Origin: Bugula neritina
Lineage: Eukaryota > Animalia > Bryozoa
Direction: 5' to 3'
DNA length: 64,000 nt
NCBI GenBank assembly: GCA_964035545.1
Contig: OZ037773.1
Span: 3,563,751 to 3,627,750 of the forward strand
A model generated the notes under the pieces. The model did not search any database. It was not told the origin of the DNA and saw only the letters and a program-made list of their open reading frames with translations. The position numbers were made by a program, and so were the translations under genes. This document shows positions 1,604 to 16,911 of the stretch, one piece after another. Position 1 is the stretch's first letter, and each line of letters opens with the position of its first letter.

Positions 1604-2290
1604 TGCTATAGATGTATTCAAGTATTATTTTATATTTGACATTTTGTATGCTATACCACTACAATATAATATACTACAGATATAGCATCCTGCTTCCCTG
1701 CAACCGTAGTTAGAGCTTAATATTGTTTTGTATTGAATACTTCCATGTATTCTATCTTTTCCCCATTTATAATATCTCTTTTCTTCCATACATAGTGTAT
1801 GTCTACTATATAGAATAACAGTAACATTAAATAGACACACACTTACAAGGTTATACACCATGATACAGGACATACAACTAATTATTGGAGATGGTACAAC
1901 ATTAGCCCTAAAAGTATACTTCCACATATATGATGTTTCGCAACAGGACTTCTAGCCTAAGGATTATAGCACTTCGCTCTTTAGCTATAAGATACTTATC
2001 ACTTTCGTACCCTTACCTTTTATGTTGAGTGACGGAGCTCTGGCTACAAGAAGTAAGCAATGAGAGAACCTTCTGTCTAAACGTGGCAGCTTTGGTGCAG
2101 GATTCCAGATCTCTTGTACACTAGAGTCCGTCGTAAGCAGATGTGACTGAAGAGAAGAATAATACCGGTAAGTGTGATACCAACTATCAACGCGTTATAG
2201 TTATACACATGTAGAATATTCTAATTGTATGCATACCCTGTGTTATATTAGGTACTTAGTAGTTGAAAACCCCCAGTACTCAATATAACA
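1604..2290 (+). repeat. 5' LTR (687 bp)
   Basis: TGCTATAGATG...CAATATAACA; matches 8619-9305 with 6 substitutions counted by eye (about 99% identity) and no indels. Confidence 0.97.
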
Positions 2291-2293
2291 TTT

Positions 2294-2308
2294 TGGAGGA
2301 GGCACTGG
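2294..2308 (+). promoter_or_regulatory. Primer-binding site (tRNA-Cys-like, tentative)
   Basis: TGGAGGAGGCACTGG lies 3 nt after the 5' LTR. TGG pairs with tRNA CCA, and the rest resembles the complement of a metazoan tRNA-Cys 3' end (TGGAGGGGGCAC). tRNA identity is from memory, not searched. Confidence 0.7.
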
Positions 2309-3410
2309 CTTTTGCCCAAGGTTGCCCTTGTTAAATATTGTGTCCAGCTTTGAATTAATAGCTCTTGACACTTGGTTAACCACCCCGTGCGCCAGGGGAT
2401 AAAATTATATTAATACTTTAAATAGTGTTGATCAGGCCTCATTTGGCTGTTCACTAATATTTTCCTGTAGGTTTTATATTCGCTGAGCTCATATTTTGCT
2501 CGTGGGTAGACCGTAGAAGTGCTAGGCCGCACTGAGAAAATATTAATTGAAGCCAAAAAGGATCAACTTTTACATATTACCCCAAAACAATATACATCCA
2601 TAGACTAATAGTAATAGAGCGAGAATTCCTATATGTTTAATTTTTCTCTGCTGCTTAAAAGGTGAAAACAAGCCAGTTTTAATTTTTTTTAGCTTAGAGA
2701 TAATTAATTGTAGAAGTGAATTACCTCCCTTTGCTAATAGGCTAATTTAGTTGTATAATTGGGTGAGCTGCAGATAAGGTTAACACGCTCCTTATTTAGC
2801 AGTTAATAAATTCCAAACAGATTCAGTTTACGACTGTCTGCTGAGGTATAGGCGCTGACAAGTACTATAATTAATAGTCTTGTCCTAAACATAATTTCTT
2901 ATAATTATCTACAATTTACTTTGCAGTGCATTGCCAATCAGAGCATCACTGAATTGTATATTATATATTTACACATTATACGAATATTACATTGCAGTAC
3001 TAAGTATCGCAACACCTGCAGTGCAGTCAGTGTATTATAGTACAAAGCATTGTCCTATTAAGTATTATAGTACCTAAGTACAACAACCGCCTTACTACAT
3101 AGTACGAATATCAAACTAATTAATTACTGTGGTTGACTAAATTTAGATTTTAGACTAGGCTTGAATAGCAGAAATAACTGAATAATTTGTAGTGTACAGA
3201 GGTCATAATAAAAGACTTCCACTAACTTAAAGTATTTAACTGCAAGCCACACCTTGTCATATATACAGGCTAGTACATGCACACATATCGTTTAGTAAGA
3301 AATAGACACATAATTGTACATTAGCACAAAGTATAAACATTAATAACATTGCAAACAAGTAGTGCTGAACTCACTTATTAATTGAAAATTATAAGTCACG
3401 CACCAACAAT

Positions 3411-4289
3411 ATGAGTACCGGAATCGTGACCACCGCCACAACTACAGTCACCACTAGTGTTAGTACTATTGCGACACCAGGTAGTGCCACAAATGTAGCC
3501 ACGGGCTTAGACACTCCTACCCTCTCACAAGACTCCACAAGAGAAGGAGCTCACGCATTGGTTGAGTTGTCCGAAAGACGACTCCCAATGAACCCGCATG
3601 AAATTGCAAGGTTCTACGAGTTAGAATACAAGAAACTTGTAGAGGAGCAGGAAAAGCAAAAGGATGTATGGAGATATGAGCAAGAACAATGGCGACAGTA
3701 TCAACAAACGAAAGAGCATGAACTGGCGGAACAGTTTCAGCGCCTCGAGGTAGAAAGACAAGAGCAAGCAAGAAGACGGTACGAGATGGAGGAAAGTTTT
3801 GAAATCCAACGAAGAAAGTTCTATGAGGAACAGAGCGCTGTTCAAGAACAACAGCAAAATGAGTTCCTGGAAAAAGAGCATCGGCTCACAATCCAGCAAC
3901 AAAAGTTACAACAACAACTTGAAGATTTTCGGAATCTCACCTTGGGTCAAAGATCTACCAATGATGCAAATGTCATGCCGGAACCAACTCCGCCACCTCG
4001 AACTCGCCTACCTCCACCAGTTACGCCACGGAAAACAAGTAGAAGACAACTCCATGAACAACCAGCACCTACACCTACAATTACTAACTTGGAATTCACA
4101 TCAAGTTACCCCCACATTGCTAATCAACAATCACCAAAACCTCAAAACTCACCAATCCAAAACTTAGCTGAAACACCATCTGAACACAGCATTGGAGTAG
4201 CTGATGCGGGAAGATTTCACAACTCACCTATTATTCTGAGAGAGCCTCCACAGGACATTAAATTTAAAGGAACTCCTGGTTCCAGCTAG
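3411..4289 (+). CDS. gag: Gag N-terminal part (Thr-rich, Q/E coiled coil, Pro-rich); ends at an in-frame TAG inside the capsid motif
   Basis: Same frame as the 4320 ORF (offset 909 nt). Reads FKGTPGSS*ELFLEKWEKNMKKL across the stop, which resembles the Gypsy capsid F-x-G-x(n)-W-x-x-F motif with W (TGG) replaced by TAG. Confidence 0.8.
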   Translation: MSTGIVTTATTTVTTSVSTIATPGSATNVATGLDTPTLSQDSTREGAHALVELSERRLPMNPHEIARFYELEYKKLVEEQEKQKDVWRYEQEQWRQYQQTKEHELAEQFQRLEVERQEQARRRYEMEESFEIQRRKFYEEQSAVQEQQQNEFLEKEHRLTIQQQKLQQQLEDFRNLTLGQRSTNDANVMPEPTPPPRTRLPPPVTPRKTSRRQLHEQPAPTPTITNLEFTSSYPHIANQQSPKPQNSPIQNLAETPSEHSIGVADAGRFHNSPIILREPPQDIKFKGTPGSS

Positions 4290-4319
4290 GAGTTATTTCT
4301 TGAAAAATGGGAAAAGAAC

Positions 4320-7300
4320 ATGAAAAAACTGCAGCTTAGTGATTATCAGATGGCACAAAACCTTCCAGATGCCCTGGAAGGTGGTGCCTATCAGGTTTTC
4401 AAGGCAGTAGTTGCAAAGGAGCCCACGCTAGCGATTAGTTACAAGAGTCTTCGAGAGAGGTTATGCAAAGAGTTTGTCGACTCAAGCAAATTAGTGTGGA
4501 ACATAAAGATGGGGAAGAAAAGCGTACTAGAATATTATGGCGAATTTATGGAAGCTGCCAACACCCAATGGCCTGACCTCTCCCTTGAACATAAAGATAG
4601 CGTGCTAGTATCTGCTTTTATTACTGGTCTACGACCAGGATTGAAGAGGCACCTCCTCTCTAAAAACCCCACAACTGTAGAAAGTGCTAGGAAACTTGCA
4701 CTTAAGCAAGAAAATGTAGAACATCAGATGGGAGATGACACCCAGAGAATAGTGGCAACGGTAAACTCATCTGACTCAGTTCAAAAGCTAGAAAAAGAGG
4801 TAGAATGGTTGAAAACTTTAGTGAACAACCAAGCTAAAGAGCAACGGCAGCCTCAATACCAACAGCACCAACAACAGAGTCAAGGGTTTGGAATGAGAAA
4901 TGACAGAGGTAGAGGTGGTGGATGGAGAGGAACAACAAACCGAGGAAGAGGACGAGGTAGATACTTCAACCAGGGGAAGCCTCAACCCTACTACCAATCT
5001 TCTCCCCGGTACCCTCATCCACCAGCACAACTTCCTTCCTGCCCACCTCAACCACCCTCTCACCAGCAACCACAACGTAATCAGTGCTCTGGTCAACAGA
5101 GCAAAACCAAAGATCACAGTGGGACGCGACACATCAATGCTATTGAGAGCCTGGAGGGTGATGAATTTGCTGAGGCCCTTCTGACACAACCTCCTCAAGA
5201 TGACATAGCTGAGGAATTAGTGAATTCAATTCAAACCTCTCCAAATGAATTCATCTCTGACAGGAAACCCAAAAGAACGAGAAGCAGAGGACGGGGGACT
5301 GGTTTGTCAACAATGCAAACCTACATGTTGTCACTAGTGGCAATGTGTATGCTGATCAGTGTAGCCGCAGCCACTGCACCAGTAAAAGGCACAGCTCTCC
5401 TGGGGCCAGCGTTGGCCAGTCAGACTCTCACCGGCATACTATCTGTGTTAGTGTTGACAGCAGTAGTGAATGCATTGTCTAACACGACTGTTTTTAACAC
5501 TACACAGAAGGCACAGCCGCAGTATGCCAGGTATCCTTTGGTGTGTAGTTCCAGTGAAGTTAGGCGACCATCTATTCATCAATTGAATCATGACTTCCAA
5601 TGTGATCCAACTCCAAGACTCAATAGTACTCATGCGCCAACCCCTGTGAAGGCTACGGTTTACAGAAAAAATGTAGTGGAATGGCGTACAGCAGCCCATC
5701 AATGCACTAAAATGCTGTACACCATCTCCACACAGATATCACTTTTTACGGATGTGAAAACTAAGAAGGAATCTCACCGGTCACTGCCAGTTAGTCGCAG
5801 CGAATGCGAAAATATGGTACTAGAGAAGAGATGCAATGAAGGTGCCCTATCTGGAAGTGATGGTGCATACACTACAAAAAACAAAGCTGCAGGATTAGCT
5901 TATGTTTGGTGCTGCAAGTGGCATGACTTTGAAGTGAAACAATGCAGTTATATTTCGGCTTCGGTATACAAGACATTTGGAAAAAGTTCTTTTGAAAACA
6001 CCGCAGGTGACGTTTCCCATTGCAACTCATACTCTGATGGCTACTGCAAACTCAGAGATCAATCTATGCTGATATGGGAAACAGAACGAGAAGCTAATTG
6101 TCCATACGAGGAGTGGTATGAAGTTGAAGGAAGTTTCCTTGATGGCTATTTTGTTAGTGATCAAGAAGACTTGGCTTTAACTTTCCGCAAGAACCCCTTT
6201 GGGAATATCACCACTTGTGACGGCAAGTCAGGCACAATGTCGGACCAAGGTTTGCTTGTCGTTTTTAATACTTCAGACCTGTTCAACACTACTCTAACGC
6301 AACACGTTGAAAAGGCTCCTGGATTAGAATGGGACCGCAGGAGTCGTCTGAGTCCAGCATATGCTGTCATGGACGCTATAGCTCAGTCCCTAGAAGTACA
6401 GATTCTCGGAATCGAATCGAAACTGTATTGGACATCTTATCAATATACCTGTAAAAACATAGTTCAAGTCCTCAAAACCGTAGCTCTACTCGCAGAGCAA
6501 CATGCGACGAGTACAGCCAGATACTTACTAGGGGTAAGCAATATCCGAGCTGAGTCTGGTCCTGGTTTTCTAAAGATTTACCCATGTACGGAAATAAAAA
6601 GCTACAAAATGCTCCCTATGCCAGAGAATAATTGCACCATGTTTATTCCAGTAGAATTGGAACTCAATGGGGAAACGCACACTGGTTTCATGGATCCAAT
6701 AGATAACATTATTCACACACAAAGTGCACAAGCACCGTGCACATCCAAATCAGCAATTGCATTCCGGATGAACGATGAATTGTTTTGGTATAACCAAGAT
6801 GGTACCGTAGAAAAGGTTAATCTTGGAGAAGACCTGAGTTTACCTGGAATTTCCCTAGGTGCACACCCTCTTAAAATCCATGAAACAATCTACAGCCGCG
6901 CCCATCACCTAAGTTGGCCTGACCTGTCAGCACACTCTGACTTGAATGAATTGCTAGCTACTTTGTCAAGACAGAAACAAGTTCTAGAAGCAATGGGAAT
7001 TCAATCCAACAGACATGTTTCCTTTAAAAACAATGTCATTGAGTCGAAAGAGAACTTGATAGGGAACTCTTGGTTTGCTTTTCTGTTTGGAGGGCATGTG
7101 GCGAGTGCATTCGAATTGTGGACTTTGATATCCAACTGTTTAGTCACCATATTGTCAATTGCATTGCTAGGTATTTTCCTATATAATCGTTGTTGCCAGC
7201 AAAGGAGAAATATTGTAGCAGCTATCGACATTGAGGACACAGAGGACACATCTGACAATGATGTTGAGGCAGGAGAACAGGATGGGTTCCTGGACGCTTC

Positions 7301-7424
7301 CGATCAGACTAGCTTCACAGAATTCGTAGATATGGTAGAGGTGGACACTAGACCAACACCTAGTGCTCCTTCGCCTGCATCTTCAATTCAGCAATATCGC
7401 CCCCTCTATCCGAAACTGCAATGA
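4320..7424 (+). CDS. Gag capsid + RGG-rich nucleocapsid-like region fused in frame to a class III viral fusion glycoprotein (Env)
   Basis: Capsid-like ...SVLEYYGEF...AFITGLRPGLKRHL...PTTVESARKLA, then an RGRGG region. Hydrophobic signal-like segments from about 5313. Cys-rich ectodomain with N-glycosylation sequons, RRSR at 6336-6347, and a gB-like C-terminal half (YTC...ATSTARYLLG...LKIYPC...NNCTMFIPV...GFMDP...APC). TM at about 7116-7184, then CC and a cytoplasmic tail. Confidence 0.85.
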   Translation: MKKLQLSDYQMAQNLPDALEGGAYQVFKAVVAKEPTLAISYKSLRERLCKEFVDSSKLVWNIKMGKKSVLEYYGEFMEAANTQWPDLSLEHKDSVLVSAFITGLRPGLKRHLLSKNPTTVESARKLALKQENVEHQMGDDTQRIVATVNSSDSVQKLEKEVEWLKTLVNNQAKEQRQPQYQQHQQQSQGFGMRNDRGRGGGWRGTTNRGRGRGRYFNQGKPQPYYQSSPRYPHPPAQLPSCPPQPPSHQQPQRNQCSGQQSKTKDHSGTRHINAIESLEGDEFAEALLTQPPQDDIAEELVNSIQTSPNEFISDRKPKRTRSRGRGTGLSTMQTYMLSLVAMCMLISVAAATAPVKGTALLGPALASQTLTGILSVLVLTAVVNALSNTTVFNTTQKAQPQYARYPLVCSSSEVRRPSIHQLNHDFQCDPTPRLNSTHAPTPVKATVYRKNVVEWRTAAHQCTKMLYTISTQISLFTDVKTKKESHRSLPVSRSECENMVLEKRCNEGALSGSDGAYTTKNKAAGLAYVWCCKWHDFEVKQCSYISASVYKTFGKSSFENTAGDVSHCNSYSDGYCKLRDQSMLIWETEREANCPYEEWYEVEGSFLDGYFVSDQEDLALTFRKNPFGNITTCDGKSGTMSDQGLLVVFNTSDLFNTTLTQHVEKAPGLEWDRRSRLSPAYAVMDAIAQSLEVQILGIESKLYWTSYQYTCKNIVQVLKTVALLAEQHATSTARYLLGVSNIRAESGPGFLKIYPCTEIKSYKMLPMPENNCTMFIPVELELNGETHTGFMDPIDNIIHTQSAQAPCTSKSAIAFRMNDELFWYNQDGTVEKVNLGEDLSLPGISLGAHPLKIHETIYSRAHHLSWPDLSAHSDLNELLATLSRQKQVLEAMGIQSNRHVSFKNNVIESKENLIGNSWFAFLFGGHVASAFELWTLISNCLVTILSIALLGIFLYNRCCQQRRNIVAAIDIEDTEDTSDNDVEAGEQDGFLDASDQTSFTEFVDMVEVDTRPTPSAPSPASSIQQYRPLYPKLQ

Positions 7425-7907
7425 CTAGAAGCCGACACACCCAGTACTAGTAGCCGCATTGAAATAGTAGCAGGAATAAATGGTAATCAATGTAGGAGTG
7501 CATTAATTGACGTCAAAATAGCAGGAAAACCGTATCAAGCATTAGCTGATGCCGGGGCTACGGTGACACTGATGCGCTCTGACATTGCTAAAAGATTGAG
7601 TCTACCATTATATTCAGGTACCTTGACTGCAAAAGGGGTTAACAGCTCTAAACTTCATATACTAGGACGCATGGCCGCTGAGATTACAATTGGATCGAAA
7701 GTGTTTAAGCAGTGTTTTCATGTAGCTGATGATATTGGCCATGAGGTACTGCTTGGAACTGATTTTCTTAGCAAACTGGGTGATGTAACCTACAATTTTG
7801 CAAAAGGAGAGTTTCGTTTCTCTGGCGAAACTTTACCCATGAGAGAAACCAACGCACTAACTACTTTTAAAATAAAAACTATGAATGCAGTACACATACC
7901 ACCATAA
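7425..7907 (+). CDS. pro: Retropepsin-like aspartic protease, in frame after the TGA-CTAG stop
   Basis: Open frame from 7425: ...LIDVKIAGKPYQALADAGATVTLM...HEVLLGTDFLSKLG. Catalytic motif reads D-A-G (7548-7556) and the LLGxDFL motif is present. Confidence 0.85.
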   Translation, partial: LEADTPSTSSRIEIVAGINGNQCRSALIDVKIAGKPYQALADAGATVTLMRSDIAKRLSLPLYSGTLTAKGVNSSKLHILGRMAAEITIGSKVFKQCFHVADDIGHEVLLGTDFLSKLGDVTYNFAKGEFRFSGETLPMRETNALTTFKIKTMNAVHIPP

Positions 7908-8610
7908 TCTCACCCGATTCATCACTTTACATAATCATGCAGATATACCAGATATACTAATATTTACTGCCATATTAATAATCAAGTTTTTCAATGGAAC
8001 ACAGGAGTTTTCCTGTTGTTCACAGGAGGGAGTACTTTAACATTTTTTTCAGCATTACAGGTTAACATCTTCTACAGTTTTGGCTTCTTATAAAACAAAC
8101 TTACTAAAAATTGCAGAAATCAAATTGACTTTTGATTAAAATAAAATTGAGTAAGCTCTGTATTGGGAAAATTGAATCAAATCAAGCGGAATTTTTAAAT
8201 ATTCAAAGTTGGATAAAATGCGGAGTCGATTGTTATCACCACCTCCTGTGACTTATGTTTATAATATTCATAATTACTGTATAGCTTAAAATCTTGTTTT
8301 TTTATTTTATCAACAGATAAAGTTCATCAAAAAAAAATGAAAATATGGTTACAAAAAAAGGGAACAGTGTAAGAAATGAGTGAGAAAAAAAAGATTATGT
8401 GACCAGAAAAAAAAAAAAAATACTCACTCTAATCGATGAACTCACTAGTACTAATAGAATACATATATGCAACAGCTAGTAAACATAATTTTCAAATTTT
8501 ACTCATTTTATTGTGAAAGGTTTCTCTTCCTTTTTTATTTCGGAGTAGTAATGCTTAATTGTTTATGCTTTCAACTAGCATGAGCCACCGGAGGTGTCTT
8601 TCTCTAAATT

Positions 8611-8618
8611 GGGGAGGA
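8611..8618 (+). promoter_or_regulatory. Polypurine tract
   Basis: GGGGAGGA immediately before the TG of the 3' LTR. Confidence 0.85.
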
Positions 8619-9305
8619 TGCTAGAGATGTATTCAAGTATTATTTTATATTTGACATTTTGTATGCTATACCACTACAATATAATATACTACAGATATAG
8701 CATCCTGCTTCCCTGCAACCTTAGTTAGAGCTTAATATTGTTTTGTATTGAATACTTCCATGTATTCTATCTTTTCCCCATTTATAATATCTCTTTTCTT
8801 CTATACATAGTGTATGCCTACTATATAGAATAACAGTAACATTAAATAGACACACACTTACAAGGTTATACACCATGATACAGGACATACAACTAATTAT
8901 TGGAGATGGTACAACATTAGCCCTAAAAGTATACTTCCACATATATGATGTTTCGCAACAGGACTTCTAGCCTAAGGATTATAGCACTTCGCTCTTTAGC
9001 TATAAGATACTTATCACTTTCGTACCCTTACCTTTTATGTTGAGTGACGGAGCTCTGGCTACAAGAAGTAAGCAATGAGAGAACCTTCTGTCTAAACGTG
9101 GCAGCTTTGGTGCAGGATTCCAGATCTCTTGTACACTAGAGTCCGTCGTAAGCAGATGTGACTGAAGAGAAGAATAATACCGGTAAGTGTGATACCAACT
9201 ATCAACGCGTTATAGTTATACACATGTAGAATATTCTAGTTGTATGCATACCCTGTGTTATATTAGGTACTTAGTATTTGAAAACCCCCAGTACTCAATA
9301 TAACA
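8619..9305 (+). repeat. 3' LTR (687 bp)
   Basis: TGCTAGAGATG...CAATATAACA; direct repeat of 1604-2290. Confidence 0.97.
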
Positions 9306-9783
9306 ACAGTGTTACTTGTTAGTGTTACATAATTCATGATGTTAGATAACTTTTGCATCTCTAACAAACCTTTATATATGTATAAATATTTAAGACTAAT
9401 AAATGATTTTTTAGTGAAAGCAAAACTAGTGAAGCAAAAGCTCCTAAAGTGACAAGATCGTACACTCCCTCAGCAGTAAGTTTGTTACAATTCTTGCTAT
9501 GTGTTCGCAAAATAAATTTAGTATAAAATTTAACATTAGGGTTCATAATATTTATTTTTTAAGTTATAACAGATTATATATCTTGAATTATAGGGAAGCT
9601 GAAAGCGCTACACTACTTTAAAACCCTCAAAATGACAATGAACAAGACCCAGCAAAGTATGTATTATATCATCGCCTACATTATTTCATTTTACTAGCAC
9701 AGATATTACATTTTCCATTCTATTGTATTGTAAAAATCATTCCTTAATTAATGCTTTGATGAACTATTTATTTTCATTTTAGG

Positions 9784-12747: not shown

Positions 12748-15705
12748 ACTGGGTAATTACCATACTACAGTGCCATATGTTGTCTCCGTGTACAACCCGT
12801 AGCTGAAATGACGAAATAAAATGCTCCACTACTATAGGTGAAAGGTGAACTCTTTGGCTAAACCTCTTAATTTTTAGGTTAGGCTAGTAGGGCAGTACCT
12901 AAGTTTATATACTAGGTATAAAGAAAATTGGAACTTCAGGGGTTCGGGCAAATAAACTATTTCAGTAGTTCAAACAAAGTTTTGAAGATTAATTTGAGCA
13001 GCCAAGTTAAAAATGTCTATCTAGACTTCATTGGGGGCAACATATGGGTCATCCCTTTATCAACATGAGATTCTGTAATTATTGTTGTGCATCTTTAAAT
13101 TTATAAAACTCTTAAAATATGGATTTTTGGACCACTTATCTCCTTACATTGCCTGCAACAGCACTTTTCATCTGCTCACCAACTTAATTAGCTTCGCCAG
13201 CACACCTCTGATGGAGCTCTAAGAAACCGAGCTACATCTTGCAAGTTTTCACACTAAATTCAGCACGGGGTGGGGGGGGGGTAAATATAGAGTATTTCTA
13301 CTTGAGAGCCCTGAATACACCATTGAGATATTAGAACCTTTCTAATCATATGAATGTTTAGTATGATCCACAATGAATATATAAGTAGCTGGTAGTTCAT
13401 TTGGTAAACCACAAGAATGCTCAGCCAGCTGACAACACCGGATTACTCAGAGGTAAGCTATAAAATGTATAGTGAGTATTGTTTTGCAAGAGATATTCAG
13501 CAAGCATGCATTAGCTGGCAAATTTTCTATTAACAAATCTACAGTTTAACTGCAAACTGGAAATCCATGTTTTTCTTTAAAATGGTTTGTAGCTTGCAAT
13601 ATTATGTTGAAACTGATACTTTGGCCGTCAAGTTAAGACTTTCCAATAAATTTGTAGCGGTGTGTATATGGAAATACATTTACATAATATTATATAAAGA
13701 AGAAATACAACTATATAAGCAGTCATCATAGAGCCTTGATTAGATAGTAAGAAAAGGTATTACATGATATATAAGATATACTGATCTTGCTGTAGGCAGC
13801 TAATACCAATATGATGACGCTGCCTGTCATCCCAGGAGACAGGTTATGTTAACAGACCAAATATCAGTAAAAACAAGTAAAAGAGTTCCATGTTTGTGTG
13901 TGATTTAGGCTAGAGAATAAGGTACAGGAAGTTGTTGTTTGTGATAGTTTGAGGTGAAACAACAAAAGTAGCCAGCATAATGTAAATATAATGTGACACT
14001 ATAATATTCCAAGTATGGTATATACTACAGCATGCAACTATAGTGTCACTTTAATATATATTATATATTATTATTATATCACTAATATAATACAGTATAT
14101 ATTACAACAATTATAATGTAATATTACCCAAATAGTATATATACTACAGCTAATATAATATTATATTATAATGTTGCAAATATGATATATATTACAGCAA
14201 CCATATCGTATAATGTTACAAATACCTATAATATATATTATAATATAATTTCATCAAAGTAGTAGATAATATTACAACAATTATAATAACGGAACATCAC
14301 AAATATAATATATGTCACAGCAATTAGAATAATAACACAGTTATGGTATGTATTTTGGCAATTAAAATACAGTATTGCAAATATATTGCAATATGTAACT
14401 CAATAAATGTAATATAAGTTAACAAATTTGATAACTGGTTTCAAAATCACAGTCTAGTAAACTCCTGATCTATATCAGTTGAATGTCTGATTGGAATCAA
14501 TCCCTTTCATAAATTATATACAAAATATAATTTTTATTTAAACTTGAAGTTACCTCAAAATTAATAGAAATTGATTGATTATAGTAACATGCAGTTAGCA
14601 GCTTACATGAAAATATTAAAATATTTGCCATATCTAGCTCTCAAAAATAATTATTATAATATATTTCCCACAACATTGATATAGTTCTTTAGCAATTATT
14701 ATGATTTCCATAAAGAAAACATAAAATACAGTAAAAACTCCCTAAAATAATGGCATAAGTTGCAGGTAGCAGATGGTGCTATATAGCAGGTGCATCCTGC
14801 TGTTCTTTCCACGTAACACTTCTAATTCTTCCTAGTAAGGCATAGTATAGGTCAACAGCACTTCAAACCTGATGACCTACCTATATAATATCACTGCCTA
14901 AAGGCAGCAATCAGTGTTCCTACACATCAAGTGATATCGGCTGCTCCTATAACTGGCTCATCAAACACTTACATTCAGCTGTCTAAGCCAGAGCTTCGTA
15001 GCAATTACTCAGTGGTAATGCATTTATAAAATAGAACATTACATTGTATAAGCTGTTTCAAGTAAGTTTTAATTATTCGTCTTAAACTCATGTTAGAAAA
15101 AGTCTTAAAGCAAATAATTTACATAGCTAGAAGTAAATTGTAACAGGGATGTACTTTGGTGAATCATTAAAACTGTTTATGTTTAGTTGACGTTGCGGTA
15201 TTCTACAATATACGAGTAATAATGTTGTATGTAATAAAAAAATATTAATTGAAACCAAAACTGTTGCTATACAAAATAATGATAAGGTAAGAAATAGCTT
15301 TCTTGTACAGTCTGCAGCAAAAATAAAAGATATCATTTATATGAATTGTTATACTTCGTATTTCTGCATCTAAAGTTAACAAGAACTTTTCATACCTTTA
15401 CAGTTTTTAGGTAAAAGTTACCAGTATGCAATACCCATAATATGTTGAACATTTAATTCACATGTATTAAAACGTATTATAAGAATTATATTTTGAACAT
15501 GTCACATTGCAAATACTTCACAAATAGTTAAACACATGTACGCTTCTCCTGTCCTGAGCTTATTTGTAGCATAAAATACATTGCTATTATTTTTATTATG
15601 ACACTTTTATTGAAAGAAAAGTTAGTTGCTTAAATTAGTATTACATAAGTTTCATCATTAAAAGCTAATTGCCTGCAATTTGTTTCAGGTCCTTCTTCTA
15701 TCACA

Positions 15706-16911
15706 ATGACGGGCCTATTAGATAACACAACAGGAAATGCTACGGCGGACATATCGAACACTAACATAAGTGATATTCATCGCTTTTACTTCCTAATGAC
15801 TGGAGTTGGGGGACTACCAATATGCTGTGTTGGCATCTTATCTAATATCATAAACGTTCTGGTCTTATCCAGTATGTTGCGCCGTTACCGATGGCCGTCC
15901 ATGTACTTCCTGCTGGTTCTGGGTGTTTCCGACATGTTTGTGCTGACTTTTTACATGATCTACATCGTTGTATGTGTGTTAGCGCCAGTCCAACCTCTTC
16001 TCTTTAAGCAGGATTTCGTCAAACACGAAGGCACGTCTGCTCATATTTTCTGCTCAGTCTGGTATATTCCTGCAAATATATTTGTGACTCTCTCCAACTA
16101 CTGCATCGTGTCAATGATGGTGTTTAGATTCCTAGCAGTATACTTCCCTTTGAAAGTTAAACAATTGTGTACAGTCACTCGGGCTAAGCTCACTTTAGCT
16201 ACCATTTCAATATTTTCATTTTTTCTTGTCTTTCCGGAGTTCCTCACCCATCGGCTGAAAACTGATGCATCAACCAAAAAGATATTTCTGGAAACTCTTC
16301 CTCTTTTCTCTAACAAAAATTTCAACAAGTATTATTATGGTGTATTAGAAGCATTCAACAGTATTATACCATTCATTGCGTGCGTCTTATTGAGTGTAAT
16401 GTTAATAAAAGCTTTATACTATGCTGGTGGCTCATTAAAAGGGCAAGGACAATTAAGAAAAAATTCAAAACGAAAGGCAGAACACAGAAAAGTAACTTTA
16501 TCGTTACTGAGCATAGCTTTGCTCTTCATAGCCTGCTCTCTCCCCAGTTTTGTATGTCGAGTTGTCAAGACATTGTTACAAGGTAGCGATACATCTGGGT
16601 ACTTAACATGGGCAAAGTTCAGGGCTGTTGCCGATATATCTCTGCTGATAAACCACTCGGCTAACTTCATACTGTATGCTGCCACCAGCAGTCTCTATAG
16701 GTCAACCTGTGCAAATTTGTTTTGCTGTCGAAACCACAGAGATTTGGCTAGGCAGGCGTCAGTTGCTATGTCTCTGAGGAATACGTCCCTCAGAGAATCT
16801 GTTGGCATTAGAAATAGTCCTCCGCTATGCCATAGATATGAGAGGAGGGCAAAGATTAATGGCAGCCCTGCTAAAACGACGTACAAGGCTGTCTCAAATA
16901 ATGAAAGTTGA
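15706..16911 (+). CDS. Class A (rhodopsin-like) neuropeptide GPCR, FMRFamide/sex-peptide receptor-like
   Basis: 401 aa, single coding exon, 7 hydrophobic segments. GILSNIIN (TM1), LGVSD (TM2), FRFLAVYFPLK (DRY position), CSLP (TM6), NHSANFILY (TM7), N-terminal sequons. Splice acceptor TTTCAG just upstream of the ATG. Confidence 0.92.
   Translation: MTGLLDNTTGNATADISNTNISDIHRFYFLMTGVGGLPICCVGILSNIINVLVLSSMLRRYRWPSMYFLLVLGVSDMFVLTFYMIYIVVCVLAPVQPLLFKQDFVKHEGTSAHIFCSVWYIPANIFVTLSNYCIVSMMVFRFLAVYFPLKVKQLCTVTRAKLTLATISIFSFFLVFPEFLTHRLKTDASTKKIFLETLPLFSNKNFNKYYYGVLEAFNSIIPFIACVLLSVMLIKALYYAGGSLKGQGQLRKNSKRKAEHRKVTLSLLSIALLFIACSLPSFVCRVVKTLLQGSDTSGYLTWAKFRAVADISLLINHSANFILYAATSSLYRSTCANLFCCRNHRDLARQASVAMSLRNTSLRESVGIRNSPPLCHRYERRAKINGSPAKTTYKAVSNNES

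Follow-up and report, generated by a model that had tools for sequence, protein, structure and literature searches.

How does a mobile element express its proteins when a gene for a viral-type membrane fusion protein lies between gag and pol, in the same reading frame as gag? This question is raised by a stretch of 64,000 nucleotides from the bryozoan Bugula neritina (assembly GCA_964035545.1, contig OZ037773.1, positions 3,563,751 to 3,627,750 of the forward strand), called the window below, in which the coding sequence of a Gag protein continues in frame into that of an envelope glycoprotein (Env). The element concerned is, with good probability, a recently inserted and defective GAG-ENV-POL copy of Ty3/gypsy affiliation, probably from the bryozoan group, with Gag and a predicted glycoprotein B (gB)-like Env encoded in one frame and programmed readthrough of a stop codon as the likely source of Pol. 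Positions are those of the window, and all features of the element are on the plus strand.

An LTR element with Gag and Env in one frame

The coding region is enclosed by a 7.7 kb element with long terminal repeats (LTRs) of the TG...CA type (5′ LTR, 1604-2290; 3′ LTR, 8619-9305), which are 99.1% identical, with 6 mismatches over 687 bp. The element is bordered by the target-site duplication ACAG (1600-1603 on the left, 9306-9309 on the right, with no strand applicable), and it carries a primer-binding-site-like TGG motif 3 nt 3′ of the LTR (2294-2308; no tRNA assigned) and a polypurine tract directly before the 3′ LTR (8607-8618). Positions 3411-7907 form a single reading frame, which is interrupted by two stops, at 4287-4289 and 7422-7424. 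The stop-to-stop open reading frame (ORF) of 1044 codons between them (4290-7424) starts with the Gag capsid and continues in frame as the 703 amino acids (aa) of 5313-7424, in which the initial annotation had seen a captured class III viral fusogen fused to Gag.

The N-terminal region of Gag (3411-4286, with the first ATG at 3411) is coiled-coil and proline-rich, and ends at the premature stop of 4287-4289, a lesion of the window copy. The remainder (4290-5312) comprises the capsid, a coiled coil, an RGG-rich region, a degenerate zinc knuckle, an acidic spacer and a basic patch, as recognized from PF03732, PF19259 and the alignment; the capsid match to PF03732 has an E-value of 1.4e-6 (Pfam). 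The CCHC zinc knuckle, degenerate here, is retained in 11 of the 15 sequences scanned. The acidic segment (5151-5195, xDEFAxxLLTQPP-like), which follows the nucleocapsid and precedes the Env signal, is conserved in 11/11 aligned proteins and has candidate protease motifs on both sides. Env-less Gag relatives were searched for in order to place the insertion point of Env, and just eight short proteins (52-137 aa) were returned, which were uninformative.

Membership in Ty3/gypsy (Metaviridae) is indicated by the LTRs, target duplication, primer-binding site and polypurine tract, together with a Ty3-type Gag capsid and a retropepsin (PF03732, a weak PF19259 and PF13975). In 3/3 intact relatives scanned, Pol (~1290 aa) has the order protease (PR), reverse transcriptase (RT), RNase H (RH), integrase (IN), and matches to BEL/Pao families were zero. 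A gag-env-pol order with an HSV/gB-type Env (HSV, herpes simplex virus) inside LTRs is also what delimits the gB-type GAG-ENV-POL errantiviruses in the available text of a recent survey, which reports such Ty3/gypsy elements from Nematoda, Bryozoa and Platyhelminthes and refers to Sacco et al. 2022 (Chary & Hayashi, eLife 2026; PMC13524379). That survey admits elements with intact ORFs and full-length RT and IN, which the intact relatives possess and the window copy lacks. Since the Gag-Env-Pol order was already catalogued there, the suggestion that a Gag fusion upstream of the protease is the unusual part of this locus was overstated.

Env as a predicted class III fusogen

Env begins with an internal signal region (5325-5468) containing two hydrophobic segments, H1 (5325-5375) and H2 (5418-5468), followed by the predicted class III ectodomain, which is gB- or Nyamiviridae G-like (5475-7067). 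The C-terminal part (7068-7196) holds the membrane-proximal segment SWFAFLFGG (from 7068), a transmembrane (TM) helix (~7125-7175) and a pair of cysteines (CC, 7191-7196). The ectodomain of ~530 aa has 16 cysteines and 7 N-glycosylation sequons, and 16/16 of these cysteines are invariant in the closest 11-13 sequences covering them. The features by which the protein had first been recognized (hydrophobic segments, cysteine-rich ectodomain, a furin-type RRSR site at 6336-6347, SWFAFLFGG, TM helix and CC) were each found in their place. Two of them are genuine in the window copy without being typical of the family: the second hydrophobic segment is present in only 2/15 sequences scanned (the window and the database protein P0006), and RRSR in 1/15 aligned sequences, the window copy alone, so furin processing as a family feature is ruled out. 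In the structural model the RRSR site falls in a low-confidence loop preceding the central helix.

This model, an AlphaFold2 monomer of 5499-7139 built from a 57-sequence alignment, has a mean predicted local distance difference test (pLDDT) score of 81 and displays long beta hairpins, a central helix of 50 residues and a beta crown. When it was compared with the PDB using Foldseek, all rows among the matches listed were herpesvirus gB (best E-value 2e-20, TM-score 0.46), and VIA-align against HSV-1 gB gave a Z-score of 12.5 and a root-mean-square deviation of 7.1 Å over 399 aligned residues. In BFVD the glycoproteins of Beihai rhabdo-like virus 3 and Midway nyavirus ranked top (E-values 2e-28 and 7e-28), with orino-, nyami-, chu-, borna- and rhabdo-like G and gB at the next ranks. 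At the sequence level, Pfam PF24664 (Monjiviricetes_fusion) matched 5313-7421 with an E-value of 1.5e-6 and 26.9 bits, just below the cut-off of 27; a sequence search of the PDB gave 0 matches, and a search of viral contigs gave 4 pattern matches, none of them a relative. The predicted fusion loops SLFTD and YVWCC (~5739-5753 and ~5901-5915) are located at strand turns of the model and are aromatic in relatives also. A monomer prediction compared by Foldseek, in line with the check that had been proposed for the fusogen reading with a trimer, gave gB as the best match in the PDB, and nyami-/rhabdo-like G ranked best in BFVD; the model, Foldseek, VIA-align, BFVD and PF24664 agree, and a class III fold (five-domain, gB/G-like) is supported for Env as a prediction.

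Relatives and the start of Env

A full-library protein search gave 441 matches at E-values up to 0.001. Ten full-length database proteins of 1134-1374 aa (P0002, P0003, P0006-P0012 and P0014) are single Gag-Env ORFs without a stop between the two parts, and the in-frame fusion reported for the window is thus real and common to its relatives. Some of the 25 long matches scanned are continuous Gag-Env-PR-RT-RH-IN polyproteins (P0094, P0097). Among 21 metagenome loci, 14 have Env and then an in-frame protease and represent six distinct elements, whose Env proteins are 37-62% identical to one another and to that of the window.

It is conceivable that Env is instead made separately from the AUG at 5313, by leaky scanning or from a spliced or subgenomic RNA, in which case the sharing of the Gag frame would be incidental and Pol would arise by reinitiation or from a spliced RNA. 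In the window an ATG does stand just before H1, the two hydrophobic segments could suit an independent start, and one database protein (P0001) was called from an internal Met. This explanation is unlikely, given the ten uninterrupted relatives above; moreover, a separate Env start is disfavoured because 4/9 relatives lack a Met immediately before the signal. Regarding spliced env or pol RNA, the contigs of four sequencing runs listed no GT-AG joint in the sense orientation, a negative of little weight as it covers contigs only. The typical relative has one hydrophobic segment behind a basic patch, which fits an internal signal with Gag staying cytosolic.

Some distant matches combine Env with other domains. 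Among P0113, P0129 and P0137, Env is found in one predicted chain with SPRY, NADAR and poly(A)-polymerase-like domains, which may be gene-model joins or cargo, and one is part of a BEL/Pao polyprotein. The distant Gag-Env polyproteins P0030, P0034, P0097 and P0155 apparently contain more than one aspartic protease domain.

The stop between Env and Pol

Env is separated from Pol by CAA-TGA-CTAG (7419-7428), where one in-frame stop stands in a context known for readthrough, and after this one TGA the same frame encodes an aspartic protease (7425-7907; PF13975), with the retropepsin match confined to 7425-7904 (Pfam, E-value 1.4e-13). Exactly one stop lies between the Env tail and Pol, with the frame kept, in 7/7 distinct elements (the six from metagenomes and the window); the count omits 7 of the 21 loci (L014 and L016-L021), which are broken or end before the protease. 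The contexts are CAA TGA CTA G in the window, CAA TGA CGC in L001, CAA TGA CAA TCA in L006, CAA TGA CAA CCA in L007, CAA TGA CTA in L010 and L012, and GAA TAG CAA CTA in L013. More specifically, CAA directly precedes the stop in 6/7 elements, C comes right after it in 7/7 (background 21.5%), and stop-CARYYA or UGA-CUA is present in 6/7 (background 1.5%, 45 of 3000). Both UGA-CUAG and CARYYA are given as experimentally established readthrough contexts in the available text of PMC4132726. As a control, a readthrough-type context was found at 1/6 true pol terminators.

In 6/7 elements the Pol frame has its first Met downstream of the catalytic Asp, and therefore reinitiation would be unable to give the whole protease, which also speaks against a separate start of Pol. 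Judged from these contexts, programmed readthrough is likely the best reading of the Env/Pol stop.

Late-domain-like motifs and candidate protease sites

The end of the predicted cytosolic tail of Env (7359-7418) contains the late-domain-like motifs PSAP (7359-7370) and YPKL (7407-7418). PSAP/PTAP, PPxY or YPxL is present in the last 75 aa of 15/16 proteins (1.06 expected from shuffles), and YPxL in 12/16 (0.31 expected), the latter occurring outside the tails once in ~16,000 residues of 15 proteins. PSAP/PTAP and PPxY are each found in 8/15 tails, and the motifs substitute for one another; P0005 and P0009, whose tails are incomplete, are omitted from the tail counts. According to the accessible part of PMC10144533, PT/SAP, PPPY and LYPXnL are the retroviral late-domain classes, located in Gag p6.

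Another recurring motif, [VI][NA]x[VI], is represented just past the TM helix by VAAI (7215-7226), a candidate retropepsin site. It occupies this place in 13/14 relatives (0.5 expected; P0016 and the L007 ORF are omitted, since the anchor failed, and L007 has the motif by eye), and its density from the zinc knuckle to the signal is ~10 times that in the ectodomain (20/903 vs 15/7214 residues). On these distributions, [VI][NA]x[VI] may be a cleavage site of the element’s protease.

Proposed working of an intact copy

On balance, we lean towards a model in which a class III fusogen has been inserted in Gag between the nucleocapsid and a p6-like late-domain peptide, capsid, spike and budding signals would be supplied 1:1 from one ORF, and Pol would be a readthrough extension of Env. 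In an intact copy, one mRNA would be translated into a Gag-Env polyprotein whose internal signal sequence would thread Env into the endoplasmic reticulum, with Gag remaining cytosolic and membrane-anchored at ~1 Env per Gag. The cytosolic Env tail (PSAP, PPxY, YPxL) would recruit the endosomal sorting complexes required for transport (ESCRT) for budding, which is the role of Gag p6 in retroviruses, and the resulting particles may be infectious. A few percent of ribosomes would pass UGA-CUAG or stop-CARYYA, attaching PR, RT, RNase H and IN to the Env tail and not to Gag. The protease might then cut the [VI][NA]x[VI] sites after the capsid, after the nucleocapsid, before the signal and just past the TM helix, releasing the core proteins; the clipping past the TM helix would free Pol, and may activate the spike like the R peptide of murine leukaemia virus (MLV).

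Several points weigh against this model. The predicted TM-score (pTM) of the Env monomer is only 0.54. In the window and P0006, which have two hydrophobic segments after Gag, a Gag-fused chain that crossed the membrane with both of them would leave the ectodomain cytosolic (inverted), and one segment would have to be skipped, re-entrant or flipped. The motif [VI][NA]x[VI] was defined after seeing the alignment, and the elements are related, so that the 7/7, 6/7 and tail counts are not independent events. The stop of L001 (TGA-CGC) has the +4 C alone. The true pol terminator of L013 (8334-8342) is also followed by CARYYA, with only 10 further codons after it. No consistent RNA hairpin was detected after the stop in the 7 elements (z from -3.3 to +2.6, 2/7 below -2), and a conserved stimulatory hairpin 3′ of the stop, having no common structure, was dropped. 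Finally, a tyrosine sorting signal is another possible reading of YPxL.

The last three points would also suit a stop that merely ends translation, Pol being made in another way and the tail motifs serving endocytic sorting and not ESCRT budding, with YPxL fitting the general Yxx-hydrophobic sorting pattern. However, among elements that are 37-62% identical the stop is either UGA or UAG and its context falls in one or the other of two known readthrough classes, always with the frame kept, and the tails also contain PSAP/PTAP and PPxY as mutual substitutes; we consider this explanation quite improbable.

Under the readthrough model, the leaky stop, together with the Env tail's late motifs and the candidate protease sites, would make up a concrete scheme for the assembly, budding and enzyme packaging of GAG-ENV-POL elements. 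How gB-carrying elements transmit is stated as unknown in the discussion of PMC13524379. The budding signals, being kept across elements of 37-62% identity, argue for exit from the cell as enveloped particles, and the layout suggests a capture route in which a glycoprotein like those of negative-strand RNA viruses was inserted at the end of gag.

Condition of the window copy

The Gag stop at 4287-4289 is private to the window: relatives are open at this point, and spanning single contigs from 4/4 runs of the same organism are stop-free. A role as a programmed signal is ruled out by its absence from relatives and sibling contigs. Further downstream, pol is cut at a deletion junction (~7904-7906), where contigs terminate or switch to other sequence. 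The Pol of an intact relative aligns by tblastn only to 7431-7904 across the whole 64 kb, and this search found no RT, RNase H or IN anywhere in the window; because the contigs break at 7904-7906 and the Pol match stops at 7904, the three domains are taken as deleted from this copy. Neither the Gag stop nor the lack of these domains had been noticed in the initial annotation. The interval from the pol break to the 3′ LTR (7907-8606) measures only ~700 nt, and intact relatives have 1.6-1.9 kb between the end of pol and the terminal repeat.

The insertion is young, because the LTRs are nearly identical and the target duplication is intact; the window copy is thus young but non-autonomous, unable to replicate alone. 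Sibling copies that are 95-99% identical, with different flanks, lack the Gag stop. It is very improbable that the Env of this pol-less copy, the sole fully intact gene now that Gag is stopped and pol deleted, serves the host as a domesticated fusogen, given the youth of the insertion and these siblings in other flanks.

Of the runs that contain the sequence, none is registered as RNA, and contigs, which show neither strand nor level, speak neither for nor against expression. In contigs from runs presumed to be RNA, 2146 is joined to 3434, and there are breaks near 3615 and 3941. Read on the minus strand, the gaps 2147-3433 and 3614-3940 have GT...AG ends and pyrimidine tracts, which points to spliced antisense RNA of a sibling copy with gag frameshifts, running into the 5′ LTR. 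Such a transcript is possibly a silencing one, similar to a precursor of PIWI-interacting RNAs.

Relation to known systems

The nematode endogenous retroviruses (NERV), said to have been described by Sacco et al. in 2022, are reportedly Metaviridae in which an RNA-virus-like glycoprotein separates gag from pro-pol within one continuous gag-env-pro-pol ORF. The window clade differs in having one stop before PR in 7/7 elements, and continuous polyproteins of the kind reported for NERV are found among the distant matches P0094 and P0097. With the G proteins of Nyamiviridae and Chuviridae and with herpesvirus gB, the window Env would have in common the predicted fold, bipartite loops, a long central helix and a C-terminal TM helix, whereas identity is only 11-20%, the signal of Env is internal and not N-terminal, Env is fused to Gag and the element has no gH/gL companion. 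The late-domain motifs belong to the same three classes as those of retroviral Gag p6 and are likewise situated just before the protease, but they stand behind the TM helix of Env and not directly after the nucleocapsid.

MLV makes its Gag-Pol by readthrough, a single in-frame stop setting the ratio of structural protein to enzyme as it would in the window clade. The same is described for Candida Tca2 in the accessible part of PMC2194720. In contrast to both, the window clade has its stop behind a membrane protein's cytosolic tail, with neither a pseudoknot nor a hairpin detected.

The closest known elements are arguably bryozoan errantiviruses of configuration C2b from Cryptosula (Cpal_errantivirus_4, 5 and 6), which, in the portion of PMC13524379 that is available, have the same gene order, a gB-type Env and flanking LTRs. 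In domains I-II, their Env proteins and that of the window have several motifs in common (the SxFTD and CC loops, AGDVSHC and SDQG), and by a count made by eye ~97/210 residues (~46%) of these domains are identical between Cpal_errantivirus_6 and the window, a likeness from which a host among the bryozoans or close to them would be expected. The cysteine pattern of these domains also resembles that of the three Cryptosula elements by eye. Unlike them, the window copy is defective. An in-frame Gag-Env fusion, a leaky stop and late domains are unmentioned in the main text of PMC13524379, although its figures, remaining supplements or repository may show them, and searches of the literature outside subscription papers gave no paper that ascribes readthrough or late domains to GAG-ENV-POL elements. 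Therefore, the kind of element is known, and budding signals in the Env tail with a leaky Env/Pol stop, as the expression and budding model of the clade, are apparently undescribed.

Other features of the window

Beyond the element, an intronless host gene for a rhodopsin-family G protein-coupled receptor lies at 15649-16911 (7tm_1, E-value 6e-17; Srw-type, E-value 5e-11). The region 29800-58100 contains many microsatellite and minisatellite arrays, with periods of 2, 10, 13, 23, 24, 26, 39 and 52.

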